From: Horticoccus luteus
Lineage (GTDB): Bacteria; Verrucomicrobiota; Verrucomicrobiia; Opitutales; Opitutaceae
NCBI RefSeq assembly: GCF_019464535.1
Contig: NZ_CP080507.1
Span: 1,020,001-1,052,000, forward strand
Direction of reading: 5' to 3'
DNA length: 32,000 nt
Shown here: one piece after another, positions 1 to 27,141 of the stretch
Layout: each line of letters begins with the position of its first letter
Position numbering within the stretch: the stretch's first letter is position 1
Made by a program: the position numbers and the translations under genes
Notes under the pieces: model-generated
What the model was told of the DNA's origin: nothing
Databases searched by the model: none
What the model saw: only the letters and a program-made list of their open reading frames with translations

Positions 1-189
1 CGCAACCCGAATCCGCGTATGCCCGACTTCCAAAAACTGCCGTTTACGCGGCAGGAGCAAAATCGCAAAAGCCATCCCGCCTCCGCAGGCGCGGAAGGTG
101 GCGCGCACGGCGAAGGCCACGGAGAAATGAAGAAGCAAGCAGACCACGCGATGCTCGATTCCGCCAAACGTTTAGGAGGCGTTAGCTAA
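1..189 (+). CDS. 3' end of upstream gene, probably ACIII subunit ActB (Fe-S/molybdopterin-like subunit), partial at the window edge
   Basis: Frame 1 is open from base 1 ([20 protein letters not shown]...[29 protein letters not shown]). Its TAA stop overlaps the actC ATG as TAATG at 187-191. The ActB assignment rests only on the canonical actABCDEF order. Confidence 0.45.
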
Positions 190-1676
190 TGGCTCACGTC
201 GAACAAACCGCCCCTCCGGCTATTCTGCGGGAGGTCAAGCCAGCCATTTTGCCGCGCGCAGAGTTGGTCGAGCATGGCCGCAGCTTCACTTGGATTACAG
301 AGAAGATCTGTGGGATCGTGGAAGGCCAAACCCCGACGTGGTGGTGGTGGTGCTTCGCGGTCGCTTGCTTTGTCGCTTCGTTTACCTTTGCGGGCATCAC
401 CTACCTTGTCGCCACCGGCGTCGGTGTGTGGGGCCATCGCAATCCCGTGAACTGGGGCTGGCCGATCGTGAACTTCGTTTTCTGGATCGGTATCGGTCAC
501 GCCGGCACTTTGATCTCCGCGATCTTGTGCCTGTTGCGCCAAAAGTGGCGGACGTCGATCAACCGTTCCGCGGAGGCGATGACGATCTTCGCCGTCGTCT
601 GCGCCGGCATTTTCCCGGTCTTTCACGTTGGTCGCGTTTGGTATGCATGGTTCTTGTTCCCGATCCCGAATTCCAACGCGATCTGGCAGAATTTCCGCTC
701 ACCGTTGGAATGGGACGTGTTCGCTGTTTCGACCTACGGAACGGTTTCGGTGCTCTTTTGGTATGTCGGTATGATTCCTGATCTGGCGGTCTTGCGTGAC
801 CGTTTTCAGGAAAAAGGGCGCCGCGTCCGCTCCTTCTGCTACGGCCTGTTCGCGATGGGGTGGCGTGGATCGAACCGCCATTGGAGCAACTACGAAATGG
901 CGTATTTAATCTTGGCCGGCATCGCGACGCCGCTCGTGCTTTCGGTGCACACGGTCGTTTCGTTCGACTTCGCAGTCGCGCTGATCCCAGGCTGGCATAC
1001 AACAATTTTCCCGCCGTATTTCGTGGCGGGCGCAATCTTCTCAGGCTTCGGCATGGTGCTGACCCTGATGCTGCCCTTGCGATCGATCTACCGCCTCGAA
1101 GATCTCATTACGCAGTATCACATCGACTGCATGTGCAAGATCACCCTCGCGACGGGCACGATGGTCGGATATGCCTACGCGATGGAGTTCTTCATCGCGT
1201 GGTATGGCGCGAATCCGTTTGAAGGCTTCACGTTTATCAACCGCGCGTTCGGCCCTTATGCTTGGGCGTATTGGATCATGATTTCCTGCAACGTCATCAC
1301 GCCGCAGTTCTTCTGGTTCAAGTCCGTCCGTCGCAATACGACGATGGTTTGGGTGCTGTCGTTGTTCGTGAACGTAGGCATGTGGTTTGAGCGTTTTGTC
1401 ATCATCTGCACGTCGCTCACCCGTGATTTTCTCCCGTCGAGCTGGGGTTATCTCAGCCCGACCGTGGTCGATATCTTCACATTCTTCGGCACCTTCGGGC
1501 TGTTTTCCGTCCTCTTCTTGCTCTTCATCCGCTTCCTGCCTCTGATGGCGATTGCCGAACTGAAGGTAGTAACGCCGCAGGCGGACGTGCATGGACCGCA
1601 CGGTACGCCGGAGCATGCCACGGGTTTTGGTGATCCGGTGGAAGTTGAACAAGGCGGTCCGAGCCCGAAACACTAA
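189..1676 (+). CDS. actC: Alternative complex III subunit ActC (NrfD/PsrC-like polytopic quinol-interacting membrane subunit)
   Basis: 495-aa polytopic protein with NrfD-family hallmarks ([49 protein letters not shown]). It is followed by the actD/E/F-type genes. Confidence 0.9.
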
Positions 1677-1682: not shown

Positions 1683-2216
1683 ATGGCTGCACAAACTTAC
1701 GGCCTGATCGCCACTTTCGATAATACGCCCGCGCTTTATCACGCGGCGCAGCAAGTGCGCGATGCCGGCTACAAGAACTGGGACTGTATCACTCCGTTTC
1801 CCGTGCACGGGCTTGATCGTGCGATGGGCTTGCGTCGCTCGATCGTGCCCCGCATTTCCCTCGTCGGTGGCATTACCGGCTTTTGCACCGGCATGCTGCT
1901 CATCTGGTGGGCGAACGGTTTCGAATATAAACTCATCGTCGGCGGCAAACCGTACTTCAGTCCGATGTTTGCGTTTCCGATCAGCTATGAGCTGACGATT
2001 CTTTTTACCGCGTTCGCGACCATCATCGGTATGTTTGTGCTTAATGGTTTGCCGATGCACTACCACCCGGTACTGAAATACGATCAGATCAGGCGTGGCA
2101 TGGATGACACGTTTTTCATCGTCGTTGAAGCGCGGGATCCGCGTTTCAACCTGGCCAACACCAAAGCGCTTTTAGAAAAGGCCGGCGGTCGGGAAATCGT
2201 GGAACTGGAGGCCTGA
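1683..2216 (+). CDS. actD: ACIII subunit ActD (DUF3341-type membrane protein)
   Basis: 177 aa. N-terminal soluble part (YGLIATFDNTPALYHAAQQVRDAGY) plus two TM helices, typical of ActD. Starts 6 nt after the actC stop. Confidence 0.85.
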   Translation: MAAQTYGLIATFDNTPALYHAAQQVRDAGYKNWDCITPFPVHGLDRAMGLRRSIVPRISLVGGITGFCTGMLLIWWANGFEYKLIVGGKPYFSPMFAFPISYELTILFTAFATIIGMFVLNGLPMHYHPVLKYDQIRRGMDDTFFIVVEARDPRFNLANTKALLEKAGGREIVELEA

Positions 2217-2219: not shown

Positions 2220-2855
2220 ATGCGCACCGTCTATCTCATTACTGCGCTCATCATTGTTCTCGGGCTCTCCATCCTCGGCTTCCGGGGGCGTGCGTTCACG
2301 AAGCCGCCCATGGATGTATTTCCGGAAATGGCATTCCCTGGCATGAAGTATCAGCCGAAATACAAGCCGCAGGGGCCGAGCAACTTCTTTGCCGACGGTC
2401 GGGCGGATCGGCCGCTGCCAGAAGGTGTAGTCTCGCGCGACATGCTCCGTAGCGATGACGCACTCTATCAAGGCAAGGACGCATCCGGAGCGTTCATCCA
2501 CGGATTCCCCGCGGCAGTTACGGTTGATCTTAAGCTGCTTCAACGCGGCAAAGAACGCTTTACGATCTATTGCTCTCCGTGCCACGGCGCACTCGGCAAT
2601 GGGCAGGGTATTACGAAGTCCTACGGGATGGGCGCTACGCCCACCTACCATGACGACCGTCTACGGCAAATGCCGGAAGGCGAGATCTTCAACACCATCA
2701 CGCACGGCAAGGGCAATATGCTCTCTTACGCGGACAAGCTTGTTCCTCAGGACAGGTGGGCGGTAATCGCCTACGTTCGCGCCCTGCAACGCGCCGAAAC
2801 GGGCACGCTCGCGGACGTTCCTGCGAATCATCGATCGGAGCTTGGCCTCAAATGA
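2220..2855 (+). CDS. actE: ACIII subunit ActE, membrane-anchored monoheme cytochrome c
   Basis: N-terminal TM helix, a single CSPCH heme c motif and a distal Met region (GKGNMLSYA). Starts 3 nt after the actD stop. Confidence 0.85.
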   Translation: MRTVYLITALIIVLGLSILGFRGRAFTKPPMDVFPEMAFPGMKYQPKYKPQGPSNFFADGRADRPLPEGVVSRDMLRSDDALYQGKDASGAFIHGFPAAVTVDLKLLQRGKERFTIYCSPCHGALGNGQGITKSYGMGATPTYHDDRLRQMPEGEIFNTITHGKGNMLSYADKLVPQDRWAVIAYVRALQRAETGTLADVPANHRSELGLK

Positions 2856-4123
2856 GCACTCACGCTGAATCTGCTCCCACCACCTTGGTTCCAGCCGCGT
2901 CGCCCGCGGCTGGCGCAACGAAAGCGTTGGGCATTGGCATAATTGGATTGGTGCTGACTGCACTCGGCCTCTTCGTCAGCGACCTTCGCAGCGTCGCCTT
3001 CTCGTACTTGGTCGGCATTTCCTATTGGACGGCCATCGCCATCGGCATGCTGATGATGATCATGATTCATCACGTTTTTGATGCATCTTGGTCCGTCGTC
3101 ATTCGCCGGCAGTGGGAGCACGGGATCGCCAGCTTCAAGTGGTTGCTGCTGCTTTTCCTGCCCTTGCTGATTGTTACCTTCTGGAAGCCGGGCTCCGTCT
3201 GGCCATGGACCGACCTTAGCCACGTCATCAGCAATGGTGAAACCGTGGGCCACGATCCGCTCTATTTGAAGAAATCGGCGTTTCTGAGTATCAAAGCACT
3301 GTTCGGCGCGACGGTCGTGTTTTACCTTCTCTGGTGGTGGCTCTCCGCCCGTTTGCGGAAAGCGTCGTTCACTCAAGATAGCGACGGCGATCCTCGCTGG
3401 ACCCTCATGAACCGAGTGACCTCCGCAGCCGGCATCCCGATTGGAGCTATCACCCTGACGGCGGCAGCCATTTACTGGATCAAGAGTCTCGAATACCACT
3501 GGTTTTCCACGATGTATGGCGTGTGGTTCTTCGCGAACTGCGTGCGCGGTGCCCTTTGCGTTGGCGTAGTGATCATGGTTTGGCTGCAACGTCGCGGCGA
3601 ATATCGAGGCGTGCTCAATACCAATCACTATCACAGCATCGGCCAGCTCATGTTGGCGTTCACGGTCTTCTGGGCCTACGTCACCTTCGCGCAATACTTC
3701 CTGATCTGGAATGCCAACGTGCCGGAAGAAACGTTTTGGTATAACATTCGCGAACTGAATCAAGACGGGCACACCAACCAATGGTGGTGGGTCGGTTTGG
3801 CGATTTTGTTCGGCCACTTCGTCATTCCGTTCCTCTTATTGCTGTCCTACCGCTACAAAGTCACGCCGGTCATTATTCGGCGCATCGCGTATGGCATCTT
3901 GGCGTCCATCCTTCTCGATCTTTGCTATAATGTCCTGCCGGCGCTGCGTGACAGCCACGATAATCCCCAGCCCTTTCTTTCGATTCGTCTGCTGTGGGTG
4001 GCAACTTCCGTAGTAGGCATTGGCGGCGTTTGCGTGTGGGCTTACCTGCGCAGCTTTGCGACGACCAAACTGATTCCTATCCGTGATCCTCGGATTGGCG
4101 AGAGCCTCACGCACCATGAGTAA
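2852..4123 (+). CDS. actF: ACIII subunit ActF (second NrfD-like polytopic membrane subunit)
   Basis: Polytopic membrane protein. Start placed at the ATG at 2852 (MSTHAESAP...), which overlaps the actE stop as ATGA. The longer track ORF from 2756 would run inside actE. Confidence 0.85.
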   Translation: MSTHAESAPTTLVPAASPAAGATKALGIGIIGLVLTALGLFVSDLRSVAFSYLVGISYWTAIAIGMLMMIMIHHVFDASWSVVIRRQWEHGIASFKWLLLLFLPLLIVTFWKPGSVWPWTDLSHVISNGETVGHDPLYLKKSAFLSIKALFGATVVFYLLWWWLSARLRKASFTQDSDGDPRWTLMNRVTSAAGIPIGAITLTAAAIYWIKSLEYHWFSTMYGVWFFANCVRGALCVGVVIMVWLQRRGEYRGVLNTNHYHSIGQLMLAFTVFWAYVTFAQYFLIWNANVPEETFWYNIRELNQDGHTNQWWWVGLAILFGHFVIPFLLLLSYRYKVTPVIIRRIAYGILASILLDLCYNVLPALRDSHDNPQPFLSIRLLWVATSVVGIGGVCVWAYLRSFATTKLIPIRDPRIGESLTHHE

Positions 4124-4436
4124 CCCTTCCGCAAAACCTGTTTCATTGTTTACCGTCATCGCCGTTTTGGTGTGCCTGGGGTTGTTCTTCGCGGTGGCGT
4201 GGTGGACCCGGAGTCCGGCGCTGGCGCCGAGGGAACTCGCGCCGGAAGGATTGGCGGCCGACCAGCAATGGAAGGCGACGCCTGAATCGCGCAAAGCGCA
4301 CCTTGTCACCCTGCGCGCCGAAGAAGCCAAGCATGCCACGACGTACGCGTGGATCGACCAAAGCGCCGGGACGGTGCAATTGCCCATTGACCGCGCCATG
4401 GAGCTGACCGTTGAACGTTACAGCGCCAAACACTGA
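4116..4436 (+). CDS. Small single-pass membrane protein of unknown function, embedded between actF and the ccoN-like gene
   Basis: Start at the ATG at 4116 (MSNPSAKPVSLFTVIAVLVCLGLFFAVAWW...), overlapping the actF stop by 8 nt. One TM helix plus a roughly 75-aa soluble tail (…AWIDQSAGTVQLPIDRAMELTVERY). I recognise no family. Confidence 0.6.
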   Translation: MSNPSAKPVSLFTVIAVLVCLGLFFAVAWWTRSPALAPRELAPEGLAADQQWKATPESRKAHLVTLRAEEAKHATTYAWIDQSAGTVQLPIDRAMELTVERYSAKH

Positions 4437-4455: not shown

Positions 4456-5871
4456 ATGATCACAAACTCGCCAACCGCCGCCGAAGTCAGCGACATCGAC
4501 GTCACCGCGCGCCGGCCGTTGCTCTACTTGTTCGGTTCCGCGTTCCTTTGGCTCGTGCTAAGCGGGCTTTTCGCCGTGGTAAACTCGCTTCAGCTCACGA
4601 TGCCAGCGTTGTTGGCGCACTGCCCGGTGCTGACCTACGGGCGGCTGCACGCCGCGCACGAGAGCGCATTCATCTATGGGTGGGCGGCCAATGCCGGCAT
4701 GGCTATTTCGCTTTGGCTGCTGTCGCGTTTGGGTCTCACCATGATGCGAGGCGCCTCGTTCGTTTGTTTGGGTGGACTCTTTTGGAACATCGGAGTGCTG
4801 GTGGGCGTGGGCGGGATCTTGATCGGTGATGCAACGACGTTTTCGGGCCTGCAGATGCCTCTCTATGCCCACGCTGTGTTGCTCGTAGCATTCGGCTTCA
4901 TGGCAGTAGCTGGTGTACTGGCTTGGTCGGGCCGGAAGCATGAAACCGCGTTTGCTTCGCAATGGTATGCGTTGGCGGCGATTTTCCTTTTCCCGTGGAT
5001 CTTCTCGATTGCCCTGATCTCGCTCCTGCTCGCTCCAGGAGCAGGCACTTCGCAATCTGTCGTCAGTGCGTGGTTTGCGGAGAACCTCTATATGCTCTGG
5101 CTCGCCCCAATGGCGTTGGGTGCTCTCTATTACCTCCTCCCCAAGATCACTGCCAAAGCGATTCCGCATTACTCGTTCGCCGGACTGGGCTTTTGGACTT
5201 TGATCGTCGTTGGATCCTGGACCGGGCCGCGGGTATTGGTGAATGGTCCTGTGCCTGCGTGGATTCCCACGGTGGCCATCGCGCTGACTTTTGTAGCACT
5301 GATGCACTACTGGCTGGTGTGGCTTAATCTTCGCGGTCTGTTCGCAACTCGCGGGAGCATCGTGTTGAAGTTCGCGGCGCTTGGCTTCGCGGCTTATATC
5401 CTGACCGGCCTGGCCAATGCAGTTCTTTCCTTCCGAACGCTCGCGAACGTGGTTCAGTTTACCTATGTGACTGATGCGACCGGGGCACTGGCGCTCATTG
5501 GCTCGATTTCCCTGACATTTTTCGCCGCGATCTATTTTATTGTCCCGCGTCTTTGTGGCCGGGCCTGGCCTTCCGCAGGTTTGGTTCGCATTCACTTCGG
5601 CGCCTCAGTGCTCGGAGTCGTGGCGATTGTGGTTGGCTTGGCCGTGGCAGGGTGGGTGCAAGGGCGCGAGTTGAATTCGACCGCGGACTTCGCACATATC
5701 GCGGCCGTTACGAAGCCGTGGTTGCTGCTCGCCACCGCGGGCCAAGCACTGCTGCTTGTCGGCAATATTCTGGCGACGTTCCACTTTCTCCGGCTGATCG
5801 CTTGCCGGCGCAATGAAGTCACCTTGCCCGCGTTTCGGGCACCAGCGGCGATGGAGGTTTCCGTATCATGA
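4456..5871 (+). CDS. cbb3-type heme-copper oxidase subunit I (CcoN) homolog lacking most metal ligands
   Basis: About 470 aa, of 12-TM length, and collinear by eye with CcoN (GRLHAAHESAFIYGW; YYLLPK; GP..L; GALALIG). Start is the ATG at 4456 (MITNSP); the alternative ATG at 4411 would overlap the previous gene by 26 nt. The stop overlaps the ccoO-like start as ATGA. Confidence 0.85.
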   Translation: MITNSPTAAEVSDIDVTARRPLLYLFGSAFLWLVLSGLFAVVNSLQLTMPALLAHCPVLTYGRLHAAHESAFIYGWAANAGMAISLWLLSRLGLTMMRGASFVCLGGLFWNIGVLVGVGGILIGDATTFSGLQMPLYAHAVLLVAFGFMAVAGVLAWSGRKHETAFASQWYALAAIFLFPWIFSIALISLLLAPGAGTSQSVVSAWFAENLYMLWLAPMALGALYYLLPKITAKAIPHYSFAGLGFWTLIVVGSWTGPRVLVNGPVPAWIPTVAIALTFVALMHYWLVWLNLRGLFATRGSIVLKFAALGFAAYILTGLANAVLSFRTLANVVQFTYVTDATGALALIGSISLTFFAAIYFIVPRLCGRAWPSAGLVRIHFGASVLGVVAIVVGLAVAGWVQGRELNSTADFAHIAAVTKPWLLLATAGQALLLVGNILATFHFLRLIACRRNEVTLPAFRAPAAMEVSVS

Positions 5872-6506
5872 GAAACGGTGTCACTTTATTTTTCGGCTTG
5901 TTTATCGCCCTGGGGATTTCCTGGGCCGGTCTCGTCATCGGCACGCGTGCCCAATACGCGAGTCTGCGTCCCCACTACGACGATAACGAAAGCGCCAGCT
6001 TCCCTCAGAGGCAGGCAGGCGTGGCGGCGCAGGGGCAGATGGTTTACGAGGATCTTGGCTGTGTGTCATGCCATACACAGCAGGTGCGCCGCGCTGGCAT
6101 CGGGTCGGACAAGGCTCGTGGTTGGGGCGATCGGCAGTCAGTAGCCCGTGATTTTCTTTATGATTCACGGCCGCAACTCGGAAACGCACGGATCGGCCCG
6201 GACCTGTCGAACTATGCGGCGCGGGCCAAAGACAGCGGCATGACACCTGATCGGCTCTATGCTTACCTCTACAACGGGCACAATGGCATGCCGGCTTATC
6301 CATTTCTTTTTGAGAAACGCCCCATTATTGGCGAGCGGGATGCGCACGCCCTGAACGTAAAGTTGCCTGCCGGTTTCGAGATCGCACCGACCCGGCGCGC
6401 CGAGCAACTGGTGGCCTATTTGCTGAGCTTGAATCACACCTACGAATTTAGCGAAGCGCAACCCGTGGTGCATGGGACTGCCGAAGGGGAAGGTGAAACG
6501 AAATGA
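5868..6506 (+). CDS. ccoO: cbb3-type oxidase subunit II (CcoO) homolog, monoheme cytochrome c
   Basis: N-terminal TM helix, CVSCH heme motif, then GPDLS and NGMPAYPFL (Met ligand region). These are collinear with the CcoO motifs CxGCH...GPDL...KMPSYPWL. Confidence 0.85.
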   Translation: MRNGVTLFFGLFIALGISWAGLVIGTRAQYASLRPHYDDNESASFPQRQAGVAAQGQMVYEDLGCVSCHTQQVRRAGIGSDKARGWGDRQSVARDFLYDSRPQLGNARIGPDLSNYAARAKDSGMTPDRLYAYLYNGHNGMPAYPFLFEKRPIIGERDAHALNVKLPAGFEIAPTRRAEQLVAYLLSLNHTYEFSEAQPVVHGTAEGEGETK

Positions 6507-7171
6507 GCGCTCCAGAATCGCAAGATCCGCGCCTGCAGCAAGCCGGCGCCACCGACGAAAGCGTTTTGAACGCCCACGAACCGCGCTTGAAGTTCAAGCC
6601 CGACACGAAAGCGCATTATGCGCTGATGCCCTTGGCGATCGTGTTCGTGTTTAGCGCATTCATTTTCATTGCTGGCACCTATGTGCACGATTTTTCGGGC
6701 CATTTTGCGCCCAGCGTGTTCGACGAAACGGGGTTGCCGATTCAGCCCGGCAGCGGAGCGACCGCGAAAGTGGACCCGCTTGTTTTAGGTCGGCGCCAAT
6801 TTGATTCGGCCTGTGTTACCTGTCACCAAGCGACGGGGTTGGGCATTCCGGGAGTCTACCCGCCGCTGGCTGGGTCGGAATGGGTCGATGGTTCGGAGGA
6901 GCGTGTCATCAGCATCGTCTTGCACGGCCTCAAAGGCAAAGTGCATGTAAAGGGTGCCGAATTTGGCGCGGCCGTCATGCCGGCTTTCGGTCAAGTGCCG
7001 GGGTCCGGCTATAACTGGAGCGATGAGAAGATCGCGGCCGTTTTGACCTTTATTCGGCAGGAATGGGGCAACAAGGCCGGCCCGATCACGGCAGCCAAGG
7101 TCGCGGAACTTCGCACAAAGGAAGGCTCGCGTGGCGAGTGGAGCGAAGAGGAATTGTTGAAGCTCCCCTGA
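6503..7171 (+). CDS. Membrane-anchored class I monoheme cytochrome c (resembles one CcoP heme domain)
   Basis: TM helix (ALMPLAIVFVFSAFIFIAGTYV), CVTCH motif and a distal Met (AAVMPAFG). The ATGA overlaps the ccoO-like stop. Confidence 0.85.
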   Translation: MSAPESQDPRLQQAGATDESVLNAHEPRLKFKPDTKAHYALMPLAIVFVFSAFIFIAGTYVHDFSGHFAPSVFDETGLPIQPGSGATAKVDPLVLGRRQFDSACVTCHQATGLGIPGVYPPLAGSEWVDGSEERVISIVLHGLKGKVHVKGAEFGAAVMPAFGQVPGSGYNWSDEKIAAVLTFIRQEWGNKAGPITAAKVAELRTKEGSRGEWSEEELLKLP

Positions 7172-7199
7172 GGCCGTTGGAAATCCAAATTTCACTCAA

Positions 7200-7226
7200 G
7201 CCGCAGAGTAATCTGCGGCTTTTTTG
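7200..7226 (+). terminator. Rho-independent terminator closing the respiratory operon
   Basis: 7-bp stem gccgcag (7200-7206) / ctgcggc (7213-7219), 6-nt loop, then TTTTTT (7220-7225). Lies 29 nt after the cytochrome c stop. Confidence 0.75.
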
Positions 7227-7255
7227 TCGCCTGTTAGCGGCGTCGCCCGGCGCGC

Positions 7256-8254
7256 TTAATCCCCGAGTTTGCGTGAGGGCACGAGGTAGTTTTGCACGTA
7301 ATCGCGCACGGCTTCGGGCAACGCCGTCATGGGGCGGCGGTAGCCTGTATCCCGCAATTTAGCGACATCGGCGCGGGTGAAGTACTGGTACTTGCCGCGC
7401 AGGATCTCAGGCATGTCGATGAAGTCGATCTGCGGTTCGCGCCCAAGGGCTGCGAAGATAGCGCGAGTGAGCGTGAGCCATGTATTGGCCTCGCCCGAGC
7501 CGAGGTTGAACAGCCCGGCCGCCGTGGGCGCTTGGTCGGCAAAGTGCAGCGTCATGGCGACCGCATCTTTGACGTAGAGGAAGTCGCGCATCTGTTCGCC
7601 ATCCTTGAACTCCGGCTTGTGGCTCTTGAACAACTGCACCCGTCCCGTGGCGAGGATCTGTTGGTAGGCTTTGTTTACGAGGGAGCGCATGTCGCCCTTA
7701 TGATCCTCGTTCGGGCCAAACACATTGAAGTATTTTACGCCCACAATCTGTTTCAACCAACCGCTGTGCTGCGCGTGCACATCGAAAAGATGTTTCGAAT
7801 AGCCATACATGTTGAGCGGACGCAATCGGGAGAGATTGTCATCGCGATCATCCATGCCTTGGGCTCCGTCACCATACGTCGCGGCCGAGGAAGCGTAGAT
7901 GAAGCGGGCGTTTTGTGCGAGGGCCCACGCAGCGAGTTCCTTCGTGTAGGCGTAATTGTTGTCGATGAGGTAGGTGGCGTTGCGCTCGGTCGTGGCCGAG
8001 CAGGCGCCGAGATGAAATACAGCCGAAAACTTCCCGAATGCGTGGGCGCGATCTGCGATCTGACGGCGGAAGACATCGGCTTCCACGTAGTCGGCGAATC
8101 GCAACGGCGTGAGGTTTTTCCATTTCTCGTCGGCACCCAGAAAATCCGTTACGACGATATCGCCGACGCCTCGCTCGTTGAGCGCCCAAATCAAGGCGCT
8201 GCCAATGAAGCCCGCGCCTCCTGTAACTAAAATCCGACCCGTGAGAGTGCTCAT
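7256..8254 (-). CDS. hldD: ADP-L-glycero-D-manno-heptose 6-epimerase
   Basis: Rossmann N-terminus ILVTGGAGFIGS, then ASSAATYG, YGYSK, FNVFGPNE.HKG.M and RDF.YV.D, collinear with E. coli RfaD/HldD. Start set at M15 of the track ORF (MSTLTGRILVTGG). Confidence 0.9.
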   Translation of the reverse strand: MSTLTGRILVTGGAGFIGSALIWALNERGVGDIVVTDFLGADEKWKNLTPLRFADYVEADVFRRQIADRAHAFGKFSAVFHLGACSATTERNATYLIDNNYAYTKELAAWALAQNARFIYASSAATYGDGAQGMDDRDDNLSRLRPLNMYGYSKHLFDVHAQHSGWLKQIVGVKYFNVFGPNEDHKGDMRSLVNKAYQQILATGRVQLFKSHKPEFKDGEQMRDFLYVKDAVAMTLHFADQAPTAAGLFNLGSGEANTWLTLTRAIFAALGREPQIDFIDMPEILRGKYQYFTRADVAKLRDTGYRRPMTALPEAVRDYVQNYLVPSRKLGD

Positions 8255-8325
8255 GCTAGAACGCTCCATCAACGGTGATGCGCGCGGTCGACGCAAGAAC
8301 TCAGGGTCGTGAGCCGTCGCTTCGC

Positions 8326-9132
8326 CTAACTTTGCTGTGCAAGTTCGCGGGAGCGGTCTGCTGCGGCCAGAACGGCGGCGCGAACCGTGGCGCGAAAGTC
8401 ATGCGCTTTGAGTTGCTGCAAGCCCGCGAAGGTGGTGCCGTTCGGCGAGGTGACTTGGTCGCGCAACGTTTCCGGGTCGATTTGTCGGCGCGCGAGTAGG
8501 CGCGCGGCTCCGAGAGTCGTCTCCGCGGCAAATGTGGTGGCTAAGTCTGACGTCAGGCCGGCGGCGACGCCCGCATCGCGGAGCGCCGCGACAAACTCGA
8601 AGAAAAATCCCGGGCCACTGCCACCGAGTGCCGTGATGGCGTCCATTTGCGACTCTTCAACGGCAACGGCGCGTCCCATCGCTTGCAGGAGCCGATCGAT
8701 CAACGTGGCATCGGTGGTGGCAGGAGGACGCAGCGCGCACCATCCGGTCATACCCGCACCGATCGCGGCGGGGGTGTTGGGCATCGCCCGCACCACGTTG
8801 CGAGCGTGCGGGAAAACGCCCGCGAGCCGCTCGAGTCGTTTGCCGGCGAGCACGGAAATTACAAGACGATCACTCGTGAGTTCGGCGAGGCGTGGATCGG
8901 CTCCCGCCAGGTGCTGAGGTTTGAACGCCACCACCAAGGTGTCGGCATCCGCTAAAAGGTCGTCGATGGAGCGGGCGCAACGGATGCCAGTGCGCGCGGC
9001 CAGACGGGCAGCGCTGACGCCTGGGCCCCCGAGGCAAATCAGGTCGGCGGGCGGCACGACTTTGTTTTCCAACAGGCCATCGACCATTGCGCCGGCGAGA
9101 TTTCCGGCGCCGAGGAAAGCGAATCTAGGCAT
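8326..9132 (-). CDS. proC: Pyrroline-5-carboxylate reductase
   Basis: FLGAGNLAGAM dinucleotide fold, RAMPNTPAAIGAGMT, SGPGFFFEF and TSPNGTT motifs. Confidence 0.9.
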   Translation of the reverse strand: MPRFAFLGAGNLAGAMVDGLLENKVVPPADLICLGGPGVSAARLAARTGIRCARSIDDLLADADTLVVAFKPQHLAGADPRLAELTSDRLVISVLAGKRLERLAGVFPHARNVVRAMPNTPAAIGAGMTGWCALRPPATTDATLIDRLLQAMGRAVAVEESQMDAITALGGSGPGFFFEFVAALRDAGVAAGLTSDLATTFAAETTLGAARLLARRQIDPETLRDQVTSPNGTTFAGLQQLKAHDFRATVRAAVLAAADRSRELAQQS

Positions 9133-10258
9133 CTTGAAGTAGTCTCCGGGCTTTGCGCTCGATAGGATGGACGAGAATGGCGCACGCTCCGCCGCCGGAA
9201 TGGTCCACGAGGGAAACGTCGCCGCCGAGCCCCCGCAACGCGTGGCGGGCGATGGTCAATCCCATGCCCACGCCGACGGTGTTTTTGGAACTGATAAACG
9301 GTTCGAACATGTGATCGCGAATCTCCGGATTAAGTCCGCGACCGCGGTCTTCGACAAAAATTTCCACCGCATCCCCCTCGTCGGGTCGGGTGATGCGCTG
9401 CGTCCGCACAGTGATGGGCCGGGTCTGGGTGCTGGGAGCATCGTAGCTTTCCCAAGCGTTGATCAAAACCTTGGCCAAAACTTCTTCAAAAACCTCCGTG
9501 TTCGAATCGATCGTCAAATCACCCAGCGGATTGTCTATCGTGATGGGATTTTCATGACGATAATCCTGACGATAGCGTTGCACGCCGCCGTCGAGGAGCG
9601 CGCGCAAACTGCATTTTCCGAGCGGAGGGCGGGTCTTGATGACGAGCGAGCTGAGTTGTTTGATGATCGTAACGATGCGATGAACGGCCTCTTCGACTTG
9701 CGCAGCGTTGCGCTTCACTTGCTCGGGTTTGTCGTAATACGCTTTGATTAGATCGAGGTAGCCGATAACGACGCCGAGCAGATTGTTTAAGTTGTGAGCA
9801 ATGCCTTGGGTGACCGCGCCGATGGTCGCCGCGCGCCGGGCTTCCGCCAAACGGCGCGTGAGATCGGCCATTTCGCGATTAATGGCGACGAAGCGGAGCT
9901 GCGTCTGCACGCGGGCCATGGTTTCATCGAGATCGATCGGTTTGGTAATGTAGTCGACTGCACCAACGCCGAGGCCTTCCAGCTTACCTTCTTTGGAGCT
10001 GCGCGCGGTGATGAAGATGACAGGGATCGAGCGCGTTTCTTCCGTGCCTTGCAGCCGTTGGCATACTTCGATGCCGTCCATTTCCGGCATCATCACGTCG
10101 AGGAGGATCAAGTCTGGTTTGTGCTCCACCACCTGATCGAGCGCTTCGAGTCCGCTGTAGGCGGTCAGAACTTCGATGCCCTCGCGTTCCAGTTTGCGCT
10201 TCAGCAACTGGACGTTGATCGGTTGGTCATCGACCACCAAAATTTTCGGCGCGGACAT
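9125..10258 (-). CDS. Soluble hybrid histidine kinase with an N-terminal receiver (REC-HisKA-HATPase_c)
   Basis: REC domain (ILVVDDQ...LILLDVMMPEMDG...ITKP), H-box (GIAHNLNNLL), and N/G boxes (EDRGRGL, GVGMGL). No TM or sensor domain. The 3' end overlaps the proC start by 8 nt. Confidence 0.85.
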   Translation of the reverse strand: MSAPKILVVDDQPINVQLLKRKLEREGIEVLTAYSGLEALDQVVEHKPDLILLDVMMPEMDGIEVCQRLQGTEETRSIPVIFITARSSKEGKLEGLGVGAVDYITKPIDLDETMARVQTQLRFVAINREMADLTRRLAEARRAATIGAVTQGIAHNLNNLLGVVIGYLDLIKAYYDKPEQVKRNAAQVEEAVHRIVTIIKQLSSLVIKTRPPLGKCSLRALLDGGVQRYRQDYRHENPITIDNPLGDLTIDSNTEVFEEVLAKVLINAWESYDAPSTQTRPITVRTQRITRPDEGDAVEIFVEDRGRGLNPEIRDHMFEPFISSKNTVGVGMGLTIARHALRGLGGDVSLVDHSGGGACAILVHPIERKARRLLQDA

Positions 10259-10296
10259 GTAACAGGAGCAAAAGGGCTTCCTGCAGAGCGCGCAAG

Positions 10297-11169
10297 CTAG
10301 CGCGCGGAAGCTTTGTAAGCCTTGACCGTGTTTTTCATGAGCAACGCCACGGTCATAGGGCCAACGCCTCCGGGGACGGGAGTGATTTTGCTCGCGATCT
10401 GCGAGACGGACGGGAAATGCACGTCGCCGGTGAGACGATAGCCGTTTTTTTTCGTCGCGTCGGCTACGCGGTTGATGCCGACGTCGATGACGACCGCACC
10501 GGGTTTCACCATGTCGGCGGTGACGAACTCCGCGCGGCCGATCGCGGCGATGAGCACATCGGCGGAACGCGTGATCTCGGGCAGATTGGTCGTGCCCGAG
10601 TGGCAGATCGTCACTGTGGCGTTAGCACCGTTCTTTTTCTGCACGGCGAGAAGCGCGATGGGTTTGCCGACGATCAGTGAGCGCCCGAGGACGACGACGT
10701 GTTTGCCTTTGAGGTCAACGCTGCTGCGTCGGAGCAGTTCCATGATGCCGGCCGGCGTGCACGCAACAAATCCCGACTCATCTTCCTGGGCCACTTTGCC
10801 CAGATTCAAGGTGTTGAAGCCGTCGACGTCTTTCTCGGGTGACACCCGCCGAAACACCGCCAGTTCGTCAATCTGTTTGGGAAGTGGCGACTGGACGAGA
10901 ATGCCGTCGACGGTGGGATCGGCATTGAGGTTATCGAGCAAGGCGAACAACTCGGTCTGCGTGGTCGTGACAGGAGGCAGAATCACGCGGCTTTCGAGGC
11001 CGATCTCCGCGGCGGTTTTCTCCTTCTTCTTCACGTAAGAAATCGAAGCCGGATCCTCGCCGACGCGCACCAAAGCGATACAGGGTCGGCGCCCGGTGAA
11101 TTGCGCGACCTCGGCCTTTAACTCGGCGATGATGTCGGAGGCGATCTTGTTGCCGTCGATGAGCTCCAT
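10297..11169 (-). CDS. folD: Bifunctional methylenetetrahydrofolate dehydrogenase/cyclohydrolase
   Basis: [10 protein letters not shown]..., [26 protein letters not shown] and [13 protein letters not shown] motifs. Start set at M13 of the track ORF. Confidence 0.92.
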
Positions 11170-11259
11170 GCGAACAAGGTGGAGCGGACGCGGGAAGTGC
11201 GTCAAACGAAACGACCGGCGGAGATTCGTTTCTGCCCACGCGGGCCGCGAGCGCGTCGG

Positions 11260-12075
11260 TTACTTGAGCTGCAGACTCTCGACGTCGATCACGATGTCTT
11301 TGCCGCCCGGCGTTGGTTTGGCGGTGCCATACACGACGACGGTGTGATCGACGTAGCTCGGAAGTTGTTCAGTCAACAGAAGCTTGGAGGTATTGAGATA
11401 CGCGTAGCGGACGCCGGCATCGTCTTTTAGCTGCCAGTCGTAGGGGCGACGGGGCATAAAGGGCCGCTTCGTGGACTCAAACCGGCCTTGGAAAAAGCGC
11501 GGGAGAGAGGCGGGCGTGTTGTCGTTGAGCGAAACGAGGGGAGCCGCTTGCGCACCGGAACGCGTGCCGTAAGCAGAGGAAGTTACCGGTGCCGGCGACA
11601 TTGGCGCGGAGGCCCCGCTGGCGGGCGAATCTTCGGCGGGCCGTGGTGCAGGCTGGGGAACACCGGCGACGCGGACGTAGCCGGTGAGTTTTTTCGTGAG
11701 CCGAATCTGCGTCCATTTGCCGTGCAAACCGGTGATTTCGGTGCGGTCGTTCTTCTCGATCGTGGCCAGAGTGGGCGAGGCGGAATCAGGCGCGAGGTGC
11801 ACGGCGGTGCCTTCGATCACATCAAGCCCCTTGGTGATATCTTTGTTCATCACGTAGCCTTCGTGTTCGTCGCCGGGGATCTCTACGGCGAGCCAGCCGT
11901 CGGGTGCCGGACCCGCGCGCACGGGTTCGGTGCCGGCTTTGAGCGAGGAGACCACGGGGGAATGATCTTCAGGCTGGAGGTGGACGGCGGTCGTGGCGCT
12001 GAGCGGTGCCGCGGAGGACCACGAGGCGAGAGCGATAGACGCGAACGCGCAAAGAGTGGATTTAGTCTTCATCAT
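11260..12075 (-). CDS. Secreted protein with two SH3b-like repeats, a Pro/Ala/Ser linker and a C-terminal domain of unknown function
   Basis: Signal peptide MMKTKSTLCAFASIALASWSSA. Two similar roughly 55-aa segments (AVHLQPEDHSPVVSSLKAG...GYV and AVHLAPDSASPTLATIEKN...GYVRV). The start overlaps the upstream gene's stop by 14 nt. Confidence 0.6.
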   Translation of the reverse strand: MMKTKSTLCAFASIALASWSSAAPLSATTAVHLQPEDHSPVVSSLKAGTEPVRAGPAPDGWLAVEIPGDEHEGYVMNKDITKGLDVIEGTAVHLAPDSASPTLATIEKNDRTEITGLHGKWTQIRLTKKLTGYVRVAGVPQPAPRPAEDSPASGASAPMSPAPVTSSAYGTRSGAQAAPLVSLNDNTPASLPRFFQGRFESTKRPFMPRRPYDWQLKDDAGVRYAYLNTSKLLLTEQLPSYVDHTVVVYGTAKPTPGGKDIVIDVESLQLK

Positions 12076-12847
12076 GATCGGAGGCGGTGGTGGCCGGGAC
12101 GTGGCGACGGGGCGTGTGGAACAGCGATTCGATTTCTTTGGTGGAAAGTTTCTTCATCGCCCGCAGGGGAATCCCTTTCAGGCGGAATGACCCGATTTGG
12201 TAGCGCCGCAGGCGTTTTACGTCGAAACGCAACGCGAGGAAAAGTTGCCGGATTTCACGCTTTTTGCCGTGGTGCATCCAGACATCGAGGTTGGTGGACG
12301 TTTTGTCGGGACTCGGATTTACGAGGGCGGCGTGTTCGACCTTCAACCGTTCGCCTTCGATCACCATGCCGCGGATCAGCAATGGGATACGGGTGAAGGG
12401 GAACGGGTCCTTCAAAATAACGTGGTAGCGTTTGACCACGGTATTGGAGGGGTGCATGAGCCGGTTGGCGAGATCGCCGTCGGTCGTGAGAATGAGCAGA
12501 CCTTCGCTGTCGAGGTCGAGGCGGCCGGCGCAGAAAAAGCGGTAGCGGGCGAGTTCGCGCGGAAGCAGGTCAAAGACCGTGCCCGAGTGATGAGGGTCGT
12601 CGTTGGAGCAAACGAGGCCGCGAGGCTTGTGCATGGCCAGGGTGATGCGCGGTTGAGCCTGGGCGCGGACCGGTTTTCCGCTGACGGTGACTTTGTCGAG
12701 TCCGGGAACGATCTTTTGCCCCAAGGTGGCGGGCTGGCCATTGACCCAGACTTCTTTCTGCGCGATCAGCACTTCCGCCGCGCGGCGCGAGCACACGCCG
12801 GCATCGGCGAGAAACTTTTGCACACGCAGGGCGGACGGATCAGTCAT
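12062..12847 (-). CDS. RsuA/RluB-family 16S/23S rRNA pseudouridine synthase with an N-terminal S4 domain
   Basis: S4 motif (LRVQKFLADAGVCSRRAAEVLI...V.VNG) and catalytic GRLDLDSEGLLILTTDG. Start set at M13 (MTDPSAL). Confidence 0.85.
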   Translation of the reverse strand: MTDPSALRVQKFLADAGVCSRRAAEVLIAQKEVWVNGQPATLGQKIVPGLDKVTVSGKPVRAQAQPRITLAMHKPRGLVCSNDDPHHSGTVFDLLPRELARYRFFCAGRLDLDSEGLLILTTDGDLANRLMHPSNTVVKRYHVILKDPFPFTRIPLLIRGMVIEGERLKVEHAALVNPSPDKTSTNLDVWMHHGKKREIRQLFLALRFDVKRLRRYQIGSFRLKGIPLRAMKKLSTKEIESLFHTPRRHVPATTASDHDED

Positions 12848-12945
12848 GCCGCGCAGTTGGCGGCAATTCTTATGACGAGGCAAGCCACGAGCCCGCTAAA
12901 GTATATCTTGCGAAGGCGGGAGCGTGGGGCTTTTTCGATTCGGCC

Positions 12946-14109
12946 ATGTCTGACGCCGATTCCTCCGCTCAATTTTCCAAGGATAATCCTTTCGCCGCCC
13001 GGTTGGTGGAAAATCGCTTATTGTCAAAGCCCGGGTCTGCGAAGGAGACGCGGCACGTGGTGGTGGATATCGCGGCCAGCGGACTTACCTACAAAGCGGG
13101 TGATTCACTAGGCGTGTTTCCCACGAACCGGCCCGGCGATGTGGCGGAGATTCTAACGCGTCTTGGTGCGACGGGCGAGGAGGCGGTCGTGCTGCCGAGG
13201 AGTGCGGGCCCGCTCCGCTTCGATGAAGCGTTGCGGAGCAAACTCGCTCTCGCGCGGCCCACCCGGAAGCTGTTGGAGCTGCTTGCCGCCAAGACCGCTT
13301 CGACCGATGAACGCGAGCGGCTCGCCGCGATGCTCGCCCCCGAAGGCAAGGATCTCTGCGCAGGGTATCTGGAGCAGCGTGAGTTTATCGACGTTTTGCA
13401 GGAGTTTGCCGGAGCCGAAGTCTCGCCCCAGGAATTGGTCGATCACATGCGCCGGTTGATGCCGCGTCTCTATTCGATCGCCTCGGCGCCGCAGCGGCAC
13501 CCAACAGAAGTTCATCTGACGGTGGCGGTGGTGCGCTACGAAATGAACCATCGGGAGCGTGTGGGGGTGTGTTCCACGTTTCTCGCCGACCGGGCGGTCT
13601 CCGGACAACCGGTCGTGCCGGTGTTCGTGTCGCATTCGCATTTCGGTCCGCCGGCCAATGGGGCGACCGACGTCATCATGGTGGGTCCGGGAACAGGCAT
13701 CGCGCCGTTTCGCGCCTTCATCCAGGAGCGCGTCGCGACAGGGGCGACGGGACGCAGTTGGTTGTTTTTTGGCGATCAACACCGGGCGGTTGACTTTCTC
13801 TATGAAGACGAGTGGTCGGACTATCTCGCGAAAGGGCAGCTTACGCGGCTCGACACGGCATTCTCTCGGGATCAGTTGCTGAAAGTTTATGTGCAGGACC
13901 GGATGAGGGAAAACGCCGCGGAACTCTGGCGCTGGATCAGCAATGGCGCGCATTTCTACGTCTGCGGTGATGCGACGCGGATGGCGAAGGATGTCGACCA
14001 AGCGCTGCATGATGTGATCGCGGAGCAAGGCCACATGGAGATCGCGGCCGCCGGCGATTACGTGAAGCAGATGAAAAAGGAAAAACGTTACCAGCGAGAC
14101 GTGTATTGA
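12946..14109 (+). CDS. CysJ/diflavin-reductase-type FAD/NADPH (FNR-like) module, stand-alone with no flavodoxin domain
   Basis: NPF..A.L..N..L, RHVVVDI, YKAGDSLGVFP, RLYSIAS, GVCS.FL, MVGPGTGIAPFRAF, FFG.Q, YVQD and FYVCGD...M, ending in RYQRDVY. This is the C-terminal CysJ architecture only. Confidence 0.85.
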   Translation: MSDADSSAQFSKDNPFAARLVENRLLSKPGSAKETRHVVVDIAASGLTYKAGDSLGVFPTNRPGDVAEILTRLGATGEEAVVLPRSAGPLRFDEALRSKLALARPTRKLLELLAAKTASTDERERLAAMLAPEGKDLCAGYLEQREFIDVLQEFAGAEVSPQELVDHMRRLMPRLYSIASAPQRHPTEVHLTVAVVRYEMNHRERVGVCSTFLADRAVSGQPVVPVFVSHSHFGPPANGATDVIMVGPGTGIAPFRAFIQERVATGATGRSWLFFGDQHRAVDFLYEDEWSDYLAKGQLTRLDTAFSRDQLLKVYVQDRMRENAAELWRWISNGAHFYVCGDATRMAKDVDQALHDVIAEQGHMEIAAAGDYVKQMKKEKRYQRDVY

Positions 14110-23525: not shown

Positions 23526-24614
23526 CTACTTTGCAGTGAGTTCGCGGTGAACGGCGCGTGCGGGCTTGTCCCGCCGCATGCCGAGAAACACGGGTTGCCG
23601 CAATTGGCCCTCATCAGTCCATTCGCTGAATTTTATTTGCGCGACAAGGCGAGGGCGCACCCACACGACGCTGGCCACGACCGATGGAGTCAGCCCTTGC
23701 CCATAGCGGGAACGCCGACCCAACGGCAGGGACGAAAAGGGTGAGCTGGGGAGACGAAGCGTTTTCGCTTCCCGCATGAGGGATTGGCGGGTCGATTCGT
23801 CGAATCCAGTGCCGACCTTTCCGGCATAACGCAGGCGTCCGCCTTCGTAATAGCCGACTAAAATTGCGCCGAACACAGTGCGCGAACCCTGCGGCGCGGT
23901 GAAACCGCCGATCACGAATTCCTGCTCCATCACGATGCGACATTTCAGCCACTGGCCACTGCGCCGTCCTGGTTCGTAGCGTGAACCGCTGCGCTTTGTG
24001 ACAATGCCTTCCAAACCATCGCGACGCACCTGTTCCAGCAAGCGGGCGGGCGGCTGATCGAAAACGGGGGAGAGGCGGAGGGGTGGGCGGGAGCGGTCAA
24101 GCAGTTTGGCCAGCGCGGTCTTGCGAGTCTCGATGGGGGCGGAAAGAAACGATTTTCCGTTCAAGTGAAGCAGATCGAAAATATAATACAGAAGCGGCGG
24201 GCGGACGGAGCCGCGCTGGAGCTGTTGCAGTAATTGAAATCGCGGGCGCCCGGCATCGTCGACCGCAACAATTTCACCATCGAGAGTGGCGTTGCTGCAG
24301 GGCAATGAGAGCAAAGCGGCACTAATTTCCGGGAAGAGGGGCGCGAGGCTGTTGTGATTCCGGGACCAGATCTCTGCCCGGCCGTCCTGCACGGTCGAAA
24401 GTGCGCGGTAGCCGTCGAATTTGATCTCCACCAGCCAGTCGCCCTCTGGGACCTGAACGGTGGCGAGCGCTTTCATCGGTTCAACGTAGGTTGGGGCGTG
24501 GCCCGAGCTTGGTTTGCGACGTGTCGGAGACCTGGCGGTCGATGAAGTGCGACGGCTGCCCGGCTTGCGTCCGGCAGATTTTGCACGCGGGGAAGTGGAT
24601 TTCGCGCGGGTCAT
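23526..24614 (-). CDS. ligD: ATP-dependent DNA ligase, LigD ligase domain only (NHEJ)
   Basis: Adenylation motif I EIKFDGYR, then DGEIV, LEGIVTKR and an OB-fold C-terminus (WVRPRLVAQIKFSEWT..G.LRQPVFLG.R.DK). Basic, Ser/Arg/Pro-rich 45-aa N-terminal tail. No polymerase or phosphoesterase domain. Confidence 0.88.
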   Translation of the reverse strand: MTRAKSTSPRAKSAGRKPGSRRTSSTARSPTRRKPSSGHAPTYVEPMKALATVQVPEGDWLVEIKFDGYRALSTVQDGRAEIWSRNHNSLAPLFPEISAALLSLPCSNATLDGEIVAVDDAGRPRFQLLQQLQRGSVRPPLLYYIFDLLHLNGKSFLSAPIETRKTALAKLLDRSRPPLRLSPVFDQPPARLLEQVRRDGLEGIVTKRSGSRYEPGRRSGQWLKCRIVMEQEFVIGGFTAPQGSRTVFGAILVGYYEGGRLRYAGKVGTGFDESTRQSLMREAKTLRLPSSPFSSLPLGRRSRYGQGLTPSVVASVVWVRPRLVAQIKFSEWTDEGQLRQPVFLGMRRDKPARAVHRELTAK

Positions 24615-25462: not shown

Positions 25463-25474
25463 GCCGCAGAATAG

Positions 25475-25498
25475 TCGCAGACGCTTCGGCGTGCCACC
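25475..25498 (-). repeat. Copy B of the shared upstream element: GGTGGCACGCCGAAGCGTCTGCGA
   Basis: Read directly on the - strand. Ends 13 nt upstream of the ku ATG (25462). Matches copy A in 11 of its first 13 positions, then has 3 extra nt, then an identical GTCTGCGA. Confidence 0.35.
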
Positions 25499-25573
25499 GA
25501 GCAATCCCGGAACGCGGCACCGGGCTTTTGCGCGGGACCCGAAAAGAAACGCCACCGCCGGGGAGGTCGGTGG

Positions 25574-27079: not shown

Positions 27080-27141
27080 GAAATCTTTTGTCGACAATTC
27101 GCCGTGTGACCGCACGGTTATTCACAAGATATCCACCACCG

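Follow-up and report, generated by a model that had tools for sequence, protein, structure and literature searches.

Why would a respiratory operon keep a full-length oxidase subunit in which nearly all of the residues that bind the catalytic metals have been replaced? The question is raised by a gene at positions 4456–5871 of a stretch of the Horticoccus luteus genome (Opitutaceae, Verrucomicrobiota; contig NZ_CP080507.1, positions 1,020,001 to 1,052,000), which we call the window and take at its full length of 32,000 nucleotides. The gene encodes a homologue of CcoN, subunit I of cytochrome c oxidases of the cbb3 type, and lies among the genes for alternative complex III (ACIII); an earlier note, made from the letters of the sequence, had proposed that the protein is a pseudoenzyme. 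We find that the CcoN-like proteins are a real, strongly conserved and widely distributed family of cbb3 derivatives that is systematically mis-annotated. Judged from its sequence, the window protein is best described as a pseudoenzyme derivative of CcoN, a label given because the metal ligands, the cross-linked tyrosine, the proton channel, the equivalog score, the diheme CcoP and the CcoS gene expected of a cbb3 oxidase are all wanting. The explanation towards which we lean slightly is that a CcoN descendant without cofactors, and the cbb3 module around it, has been kept as a scaffold and electron output on ACIII.

Fold and ligand positions of the CcoN-like protein

The reading frame runs uninterrupted from ATG 4456 to TGA 5871. 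An alternative start at TTG 4411 was rejected because the N-termini of the orthologues begin at the equivalent of ATG 4456, with MITN(S/P)PTAAEVSDID. The protein matches the Pfam COX1 family (PF00115) over residues 23–431 (111 bits, E 7.9e-32, cut-off 34.8), and a phmmer search of all chains in the PDB returns only CcoN of cbb3 oxidases (E 2e-17 to 3e-14), with collinearity over residues 31–451 to solved structures (3mk7_A, 9g6b_A). An AlphaFold model built from an alignment of 111 family members is confident (pLDDT 91.5, pTM 0.92) and contains 12 long helices. Superposed on seven CcoN chains of known structure, it gives TM-scores of 0.86–0.88 and a root-mean-square deviation of 2.2–3.1 Å at 19–21% identity, compared to 0.75–0.78 for B-type oxidases and nitric oxide reductase (NOR), and 0.71–0.78 overall for ba3, NOR and aa3 subunit I. 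The claim of the earlier note that the protein is collinear with CcoN, with the length for 12 transmembrane (TM) helices, thus finds support in family match, structural alignment and model alike.

By this subunit I fold, in sequence and in model, the protein belongs to the heme-copper oxidoreductase (HCO) superfamily. It resembles CcoN (P. stutzeri 3MK7, TIGR00780) in its 12-TM fold, in about 450 collinear residues and in being followed by a CcoO-like cytochrome c and one in the CcoP position. Just one of the six histidines conserved in the superfamily is present (H68), and the score against the ccoN equivalog TIGR00780, at 97.5 bits, lies below the cut-off of 583.15. A 100% identical Horticoccus luteus protein is named “cbb3-type cytochrome c oxidase subunit I” at NCBI, and relatives in NCBI, UniRef and JGI bear the same name where they are named, and are otherwise hypothetical.

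Ligand columns were mapped in three ways: with phmmer to CcoN chains of the PDB, with MAFFT together with P. stutzeri CcoN, and with hhalign, by which the family profile was aligned to that of 15 ligand-complete relatives (probability 100%, E 8.8e-98, 464 columns). Residues 23–460 of P. stutzeri CcoN were rebuilt from the alignment, and the numbering was checked at H60, H207, Y251, H257, H258, H345 and H347. The three alignments agree on the ligand columns, and six of these seven catalytic residues are missing from the window protein:

P. stutzeri H60 (heme b): window H68, codon 4657–4659
P. stutzeri H207: window E209, codon 5080–5082
P. stutzeri Y251: window G253, codon 5212–5214
P. stutzeri H257: window R259, codon 5230–5232
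P. stutzeri H258: window V260, codon 5233–5235
P. stutzeri H345: window T342, codon 5479–5481
P. stutzeri H347: window A344, codon 5485–5487

For H345 and H347 phmmer is one residue off (G343, L345), with no His in either placement. The replacement of the CuB ligand H207 by Glu (codon 5080–5082), of Y251 by Gly and of H257/H258 by Arg-Val (5230–5235) had all been read by eye in the earlier note and stand as given. The loss of H345 and H347 stands too, at codons 5479–5487, slightly downstream of the 5470–5478 first noted. The statement that the equivalent of H60 is kept is true of the window protein and fails among its relatives, which have Arg in the nearest orthologue, Gln in the next, and Gln, Arg or Ala in 116 of 120 homologues. 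Because the column is not conserved in orthologues and H347 is also gone, H68 offers, on these alignments, no evidence for a retained low-spin heme b. At the column of the cross-linked tyrosine, Y251, Gly is found in 112 of the 120 homologues.

The histidines that the note had listed as possible substitutes (in YAHAV, PHYSF, LMHYW, RIHFG and TFHFL; H139, H238, H284, H380 and H443) do not fall on any ligand column in the hhalign alignment, and neither profile nor structural alignment places any of them at a ligand position. H139, H238 and H443 are unconserved in the family. H284, in the middle of TM8, is a family-specific His conserved in the Opitutaceae clade, and H380, conserved in the same clade, aligns with a non-ligand His near the cytoplasmic side that genuine CcoN also carries. 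The K_C proton channel, whose residues we take to be T215, Y223, S240, H243 and Y317, is changed at T215 (to Ala), S240 (to Ala) and H243 (to Gly), with Y223 and Y317 kept. Also replaced are the Ca ligand E122, E323 and R437 of CcoN. The protein shares with CcoN W102, W204, Y223, P227-K228 of the ‘YYxxPK’ motif and Y317, and differs in lacking H207, H257, H258, H345, H347 and Y251, with an H60 position that is unconserved among orthologues. With such a pattern of substitution it very likely could not form a canonical heme-copper centre, and we infer that it binds no cofactor at all.

Active-site residues of heme-copper oxidases can migrate between helices, the cross-linked tyrosine being an example, and a working O2 or NO reductase might in principle bind heme or copper through non-canonical or shifted ligands. 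Candidates are H68, which aligns with a heme b ligand, and H284 and H380, with their conservation in the Opitutaceae clade. However, none of the other five metal-ligand columns receives a His in the three alignments or in the superposition, H68 is Arg or Gln in the nearest orthologues, H380 corresponds to a non-ligand in genuine CcoN, and H284 is not on the list of near-invariant residues of the wider family. The replacements at the ligand columns are moreover hypervariable across the radiation, the CcoS gene is absent from the locus, the TIGR00780 score is 97.5 bits versus 583, and the organism is oxidase-negative. We consider such an activity highly improbable.

The ACIII operon and its cytochromes

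The CcoN-like gene stands in a series of genes that overlap or nearly touch, with a terminator only after position 7171:

189–1676, plus strand: ActC, NrfD-like quinol-interacting membrane subunit of ACIII (Pfam NrfD, E 4e-27)
1683–2216, plus strand: ActD (Pfam ActD PF11821, E 2.9e-64)
2220–2855, plus strand: ActE, monoheme cytochrome c (Pfam Cytochrome_CBB3 and Cytochrom_C)
2852–4123, plus strand: ActF, second NrfD-like membrane subunit (phmmer to 6f0k_F, ActF of R. marinus ACIII, E 2.9e-56)
4116–4436, plus strand: ActG-like protein of 106 residues with a single TM helix (tblastn matches in 88 loci, with ligand-complete and ligand-less operons)
4456–5871, plus strand: CcoN-like protein of 471 residues, heme-copper oxidase subunit I fold without metal ligands (COX1, structures, alignments)
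5868–6506, plus strand: CcoO/FixO-like monoheme cytochrome c with an N-terminal TM anchor (Pfam FixO, E 7e-10; NCBIfam cbb3 subunit II, E 4e-12, below cut-off)
6503–7171, plus strand: membrane-anchored monoheme cytochrome c in the CcoP position (Pfam Cytochrom_C, E 4e-10; weak match to TIGR00782 ccoP)
7198–7231, plus strand: terminator-like hairpin ending the operon (10-bp stem with 6 GC pairs, then TTTTGT)
7256–8296, minus strand: NAD-dependent epimerase/dehydratase, convergent and next after the operon, well supported and conserved

ActE and ActF overlap stop to start as ATGA at 2852–2855, and the CcoN-like and CcoO-like genes do the same at 5868–5871, as had been pointed out for the latter pair. 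The operon genes are translationally coupled through these overlaps, and the CcoN-like gene is predicted to share one transcription unit with the act genes. The window begins with ActC; ActA (217 residues, multiheme) and ActB (about 1,100 residues, Fe-S) were confirmed in orthologous loci, where they lie directly upstream of ActC. Since they do, the CcoN-like gene can be placed by gene order within a complete ACIII operon, which agrees with the assignment in the earlier note. ActC is 83–88% identical in most related loci with a complete copy. ActF has no Pfam match, and its start was set by comparison of N-termini with orthologues in two related loci (L081, L082). The 106-residue protein has a conserved motif, YxW(I/V)D...G.VQ(L/I)P(I/V)..AM.L, and no Pfam or NCBIfam model; in the PDB it gives only a sub-threshold match, between its C-terminal motif VQLPIDRAMELTVER and VHIPIDRAMDLIVER of ActG in a solved ACIII (8k9e_G). 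Because this match has an E-value of only 1.2, we assign the protein to ActG tentatively. A frame of 312 residues at 7292–8230 on the plus strand, with tblastn matches in 57 loci, was considered as a ninth gene of the operon and rejected because it is the antisense shadow of the minus-strand epimerase.

The partners of the CcoN-like protein have kept their hemes, as far as motifs can tell. The FixO-like gene at 5868–6506 adjoins the CcoN-like gene, as CcoO does CcoN, and its product carries CVSCH and RxGPDL in all 77 orthologues. CxxCH is likewise found without exception in the third-gene cytochrome c (74/74) and in ActE (67/67). At the distal ligand position of the CcoO-like protein (M141, codon 6288–6290), 49 of the 77 orthologues have Met and 24 have His, an alternation that would shift the heme potential substantially. 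In the third-gene cytochrome c the pair M159-P160 is conserved, and in ActE M167. The proposal that both partners retain CxxCH and a distal Met therefore carries over to the orthologues, with Met or His as the distal ligand, and by these motifs both appear to remain redox proteins. The module differs from that of cbb3 oxidases in its third subunit, which has a single CxxCH in all 74 orthologues whereas CcoP is diheme, and in the lack of a CcoS gene at the locus.

ACIII is known to pass electrons from ActE/ActA to the cytochrome c domain of a docked oxidase encoded downstream (PMC5928083). The present arrangement is similar to ACIII-caa3 of R. marinus and ACIII-aa3 of F. johnsoniae, where an oxidase-type membrane module is also encoded directly downstream of the act genes. 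Those, however, are active A-type oxidases, whereas the module here is of C-type origin, has no catalytic centre and is linked to ACIII through its genes. From the strict synteny, and by analogy with the ACIII-caa3/aa3 supercomplexes, we infer that the CcoN-like module is physically associated with ACIII.

Conserved heme motifs also fit a somewhat different idea, namely that the c-type hemes have taken on a new redox function for which the CcoN-like protein is the obligatory anchor, as a heme-c peroxidase or sensor, or as donor to a periplasmic reductase (for instance clade II N2O reductase, nitrite reductase or cytochrome c peroxidase). The motifs are strictly conserved in both partners, the Met/His alternation suggests tuning of the heme potential, ACIII as a quinol:cytochrome c oxidoreductase needs an acceptor (PMC5928083), and the organism is oxidase-negative yet aerobic. 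Against this, neither the window nor the related loci show an acceptor gene linked to the operon, and the idea largely overlaps with that of a scaffold and electron output, differing only in that it names the acceptor. As an explanation in its own right we hold it to be rather unlikely. The 32 kb window contains no other oxidase and no ccoGHIS gene. H. luteus KSB-15 is described as an obligate aerobe with a negative oxidase test, like most of the tabulated Opitutaceae isolates (PMC12193912). Several of the tabulated oxidase-negative Opitutaceae are obligate aerobes (PMC12193912). For H. luteus and other Opitutaceae we saw a gene annotated as cbb3 oxidase subunit I.

Conservation, ligand-complete relatives and descent

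When one genome per species was scanned, relatives of the CcoN-like gene turned up in at least 501 genomes. Of the best 80 loci nearly all belong to Opitutaceae or Opitutae, including cultured Cephaloticoccus, and as far as the contigs reach, all 80 show the order ActC-D-E-F, small protein, CcoN-like, CcoO-like, cytochrome c. The frame is intact over at least 85% of its length in 80 of 80 sequences (the window and 79 of the 80 related loci), and none of these Opitutaceae-type sequences keeps more than two of the seven canonical residues; the ligand-less state is thus conserved in the orthologues, a point that the earlier note had put forward for checking. Across 111 family sequences, 42 columns are invariant. 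When the ratio of nonsynonymous to synonymous substitution (dN/dS) was estimated by the Nei-Gojobori method for pairs with dS 0.03–0.6, the CcoN-like gene gave 0.05–0.16 with few exceptions (up to 0.42) and medians of 0.09 and 0.11, the CcoO-like gene having 0.10, ActE 0.12 and ActC 0.04–0.12. Closely related pairs of the CcoN-like gene lie at 0.06–0.11. For the window and its nearest relatives (78% and 71% amino acid identity) the values are 0.10 and 0.14, approximate at a dS of about 1.4. A value of about 0.37, obtained from all pairs with dS<1, was set aside as inflated, dS in such GC-rich genomes being close to saturation. As dN/dS matches that of the partners, the ligand-less protein is estimated to be under selection no weaker than that acting on the heme-binding proteins beside it.

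Searched exhaustively with phmmer, 1.84 billion cluster representatives (50% identity clusters) gave 1,356 matches with E<1e-3 and 281 clusters with E<1e-30. Among the 131 full-length proteins of the best 150, the full pattern HHYHHHH occurs in three, one of them from Telmatocola (a planctomycete) and one from Burkholderiales; 127 of the 131 are without most of the ligands, which are replaced very variably or, at the H257/H258 columns, deleted, and the last of the 131, P0129, is a case of partial loss. A profile search with distant members added a second large ligand-less Opitutaceae clade, of the Lacunisphaera type (pattern AHTSRRW), as well as ligand-complete proteins from Terrimicrobiaceae, Chthoniobacterales and Methylacidiphilales-related metagenome-assembled genomes (MAGs). 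With a ligand-complete Verrucomicrobial CcoN as query, the named matches among the top 120 belong to Chthoniobacterales, Terrimicrobiaceae and unclassified Verrucomicrobiota.

These selection and conservation data refute the notion of a decaying pseudogene, or of a frame kept only by chance or translational coupling, which the earlier note had already thought unfitting for an uninterrupted frame. The catalytic residues are lost, and the gene evolves about twice as fast relative to ActC as in ligand-complete relatives, both of which decay would produce. Decay would hardly leave 80 of 80 frames intact, a dN/dS of about 0.1 equal to that of the heme-binding partners, the 42 invariant columns and a confident AlphaFold model, nor the presence in 501 or more species genomes and in 281 clusters with E<1e-30, and we find the notion scarcely credible.

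The closest ligand-bearing relatives are ACIII-linked, ligand-complete cbb3 proteins, with 35% identity to the window protein and 38–52% to other ligand-less ones. In Terrimicrobiaceae, Chthoniobacterales and Methylacidiphilales (for example P0308, P0391, P0320) these have the same slot and the same partners, and in three loci (L083, L084, L086) a gene with the full HHYHHHH pattern lies in the identical slot behind ActABCDEF and the ActG-like gene. Because ligand-complete proteins occupy the identical operon position, the ligand-less gene reads as the descendant of a genuine ACIII-linked cbb3 oxidase. In a crude neighbour-joining distance tree, indicative only and rooted on P. stutzeri CcoN, the ligand-complete proteins branch first with short branches, and all ligand-less ones fall into a single clade of long branches, at the base of which stands P0129.

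By R. capsulatus genetics, CcoN needs CcoS/FixS to be loaded with hemes b and b3 and with Cu. A FixS/CcoS-like gene of 48–81 residues lies immediately upstream of CcoN in four of four ligand-complete loci:

L083, 9822–10004: FixS/CcoS-like gene
L084, 9759–10004: FixS/CcoS-like gene
L086, 9788–9997: FixS/CcoS-like gene
L088, 9858–10004: FixS/CcoS-like gene

Three further ligand-complete proteins are CcoS-CcoN fusions (P0524, P0526, P0529). A tblastn search with three FixS/CcoS sequences, covering L001–L087, the window and L089, found no such gene in the 32 kb window, in 84 other ligand-less loci or in L089, as far as the loci reach. In the ligand-less loci the CcoN-like gene is preceded by the ActG-like one, and in the window the two stand too close for a FixS gene to fit in. 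The ligand-complete operons also run straight on into an A-type oxidase cluster (COX2, COX1, COX3, CtaA/CtaB, SCO1), giving an ACIII-cbb3-aa3 mega-cluster:

L083, 12937–13791: A-type oxidase cluster
L084, 12940–17455: A-type oxidase cluster
L086, 12925–18306: A-type oxidase cluster

The ACIII-linked ligand-complete oxidases thus differ from the ligand-less proteins in their seven catalytic residues, in FixS/CcoS upstream, in the A-type cluster downstream, and in being slower relative to ActC. The ratio of CcoN to ActC identity is 0.84–0.88 for ligand-complete pairs and 0.49–0.59 for ligand-less pairs; the cytochrome partners of ligand-less CcoN also evolve faster. By these rates, constraint on the CcoN-like gene appears relaxed and not abolished. 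The co-loss of CcoS/FixS, the loss of K_C residues and the faster rate than in ligand-complete relatives strengthen the pseudoenzyme reading with which the earlier note had begun. On the alignments the protein combines the features that define a pseudoenzyme, with catalytic residues lost, fold kept and purifying selection acting on it.

Several proteins have lost only part of the ligand set. P0129, from an Opitutales MAG (L089 5791–7251), has the pattern HHAQYHH, keeping the heme ligands and H207 without Y251, H257 and H258, and has no CcoS gene. A similar picture is seen in a Chthoniobacterales/Terrimicrobiaceae clade, where 22 of 111 proteins lack the tyrosine and/or a CuB His and all heme ligands are kept, while P0314 keeps the b3 and CuB ligands and has lost both heme b ligands. 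To judge from these patterns, erosion of the ligands seems to begin with the tyrosine and CuB and may have recurred; misalignment or a migrated tyrosine may also play a part. Taken as a natural series, the proteins run from ligand-complete with CcoS, over those without Tyr/CuB ligands that still bear heme ligands (P0129 and the 22 of 111 in the sister clade), to fully ligand-less.

Possible roles on ACIII

In the scheme that we propose, the ancestor of these Verrucomicrobia would have had a genuine cbb3 oxidase encoded directly behind its ACIII genes, which very probably worked beside ACIII or was docked to it. In the lineage of the Opitutaceae, and across a large radiation related to it, the ligands of CuB, heme b3 and heme b, together with the cross-linked tyrosine, would have been lost, and likewise most K_C residues and the insertion factor CcoS, with the 12-helix protein and its two membrane-anchored c-type cytochrome partners retained. 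The CcoN-like protein would no longer reduce O2; it would hold the CcoO-like and CcoP-like hemes c beside ACIII, with electrons flowing from menaquinol to the Fe-S clusters of ActB, to the hemes of ActA/ActE, to those of the CcoO-like protein and cytochrome c, and on to an external acceptor. The assembly of ACIII may also have come to depend on the CcoN-like subunit. From the sequence data, the protein is probably a non-catalytic membrane scaffold and not an oxidase; for the specific role as scaffold or electron output our confidence is evenly balanced. Membrane proteins without redox cofactors that anchor redox subunits have a parallel in the cofactor-less NrfD-like ActC and ActF, and in scaffold pseudoenzymes. 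Unlike the CcoN-like protein, the NrfD-like proteins do not descend from a metal enzyme, and we know of no described scaffold pseudoenzyme with a heme-copper oxidase fold.

Trp, Pro and Gly make up nearly all of the near-invariant columns in the wider ligand-less radiation, joined by two Arg, one Asn, one Gln and one Tyr; no His or acidic residue is among them. With such a composition the set looks like the mark of a structural protein, and not of a new catalytic or ion-binding site.

Several points weigh against the explanation as a whole. The absence of cofactors is read from sequence, and the AlphaFold model cannot tell filled from empty heme cavities. The contrast in CcoS is based on four ligand-complete loci only, the ligand-less operons end after the cytochrome c, and the oxidase-negative phenotype fits the loss of ligands only weakly. 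In the main Opitutaceae clade, moreover, conservation at the former ligand columns exceeds the average (mean column identity 63%): Gln is found at H207 in 115, at H345 in 103 and at H347 in 92 of the 120 homologues, and Arg at H257 in 119. This hints that a buried polar cluster in Opitutaceae has a specific role beyond plain scaffolding. To be listed with these points is that the window protein and its two closest relatives are without the cluster, carrying E/Q/Q, R/S/R, V, T/A/L and A. The H258 column keeps His in 93 of the 120 homologues. The change from His to Gln requires a single base.

Such a cluster could form a hydrogen-bond network in place of the metals, or part of an ion path. Because the Horticoccus subclade has lost it and other clades carry unrelated residues at the ligand columns (A, G, S, N, F or deletions), a new site common to the whole family is unlikely; a clade-specific one is conceivable from the alignments. 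The ion path leads to another explanation, in which the protein is an ion or proton conduit, or an element of conformational coupling, whose relined polar cavity carries H+ or Na+ or senses ACIII turnover and so aids energy conservation. The strong conservation of Gln and Arg at the former ligand columns and of the mid-membrane H284 (TM8) in the Opitutaceae clade would suit it, as would the retained K_C residues Y223 and Y317 and a purifying selection equal to that on the redox partners. However, the polar cluster is unconserved in the subclade of the window (E/Q, R/S, V, T/A/L, A) and in the wider radiation, the wider ligand-less family offers no near-invariant acidic residue or His, and T215, S240, H243 and E323 have been replaced by apolar residues, and we judge the explanation unlikely. 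Its boldest form, a metal-stripped oxidase fold that acts through the Gln/Arg/His cavity and K_C remnants as an energy-coupling subunit of ACIII, in a new type of respiratory supercomplex, appears very unlikely from the sequences; if true, an ex-oxidase would work without redox chemistry inside an ACIII plus pseudo-cbb3 supercomplex.

For the scaffold and electron output that we prefer, the case would be one of a core bioenergetic enzyme kept as a structural part after its chemistry was lost, and a candidate for structural entrenchment in a supercomplex. The family would also provide a ready-made “apo” heme-copper oxidase scaffold and a handle on how ACIII hands electrons on. We found no description of a ligand-less CcoN, or of any ligand-less HCO subunit I, in the full-text literature searched, and an earlier passing mention may exist. 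A survey of new HCO families covers families without the tyrosine, and not those without His ligands (PMC11214002). In the review literature, Opitutaceae are listed as having ACIII with an attached oxidase of the C type (PMC8498564, citing Refojo et al. 2010), and in a genome paper oxygen removal was inferred from “the cbb3 gene” (PMC4358385), which may be another copy. If the ACIII-linked copy cannot bind metals, inferences of high-affinity O2 respiration need to be re-checked for a large and environmentally abundant group, found in soil, freshwater and the guts of termites and ants.

Outside the operon, the gene order downstream (window 7256–14109) is common to the window, the related locus L081 and a distant Opitutaceae contig. 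It consists of the epimerase, pyrroline-5-carboxylate reductase, a hybrid response-regulator/histidine kinase, FolD, an SH3-domain protein, a pseudouridine synthase and an FAD/NAD reductase. Further along, an ATP-dependent DNA ligase adjoins Ku at 23526–25555 on the minus strand, making a bacterial non-homologous end-joining pair, and a fusion of a PIN domain with a PhoH-like ATPase (523 residues) is encoded at 27088–28659 on the plus strand.

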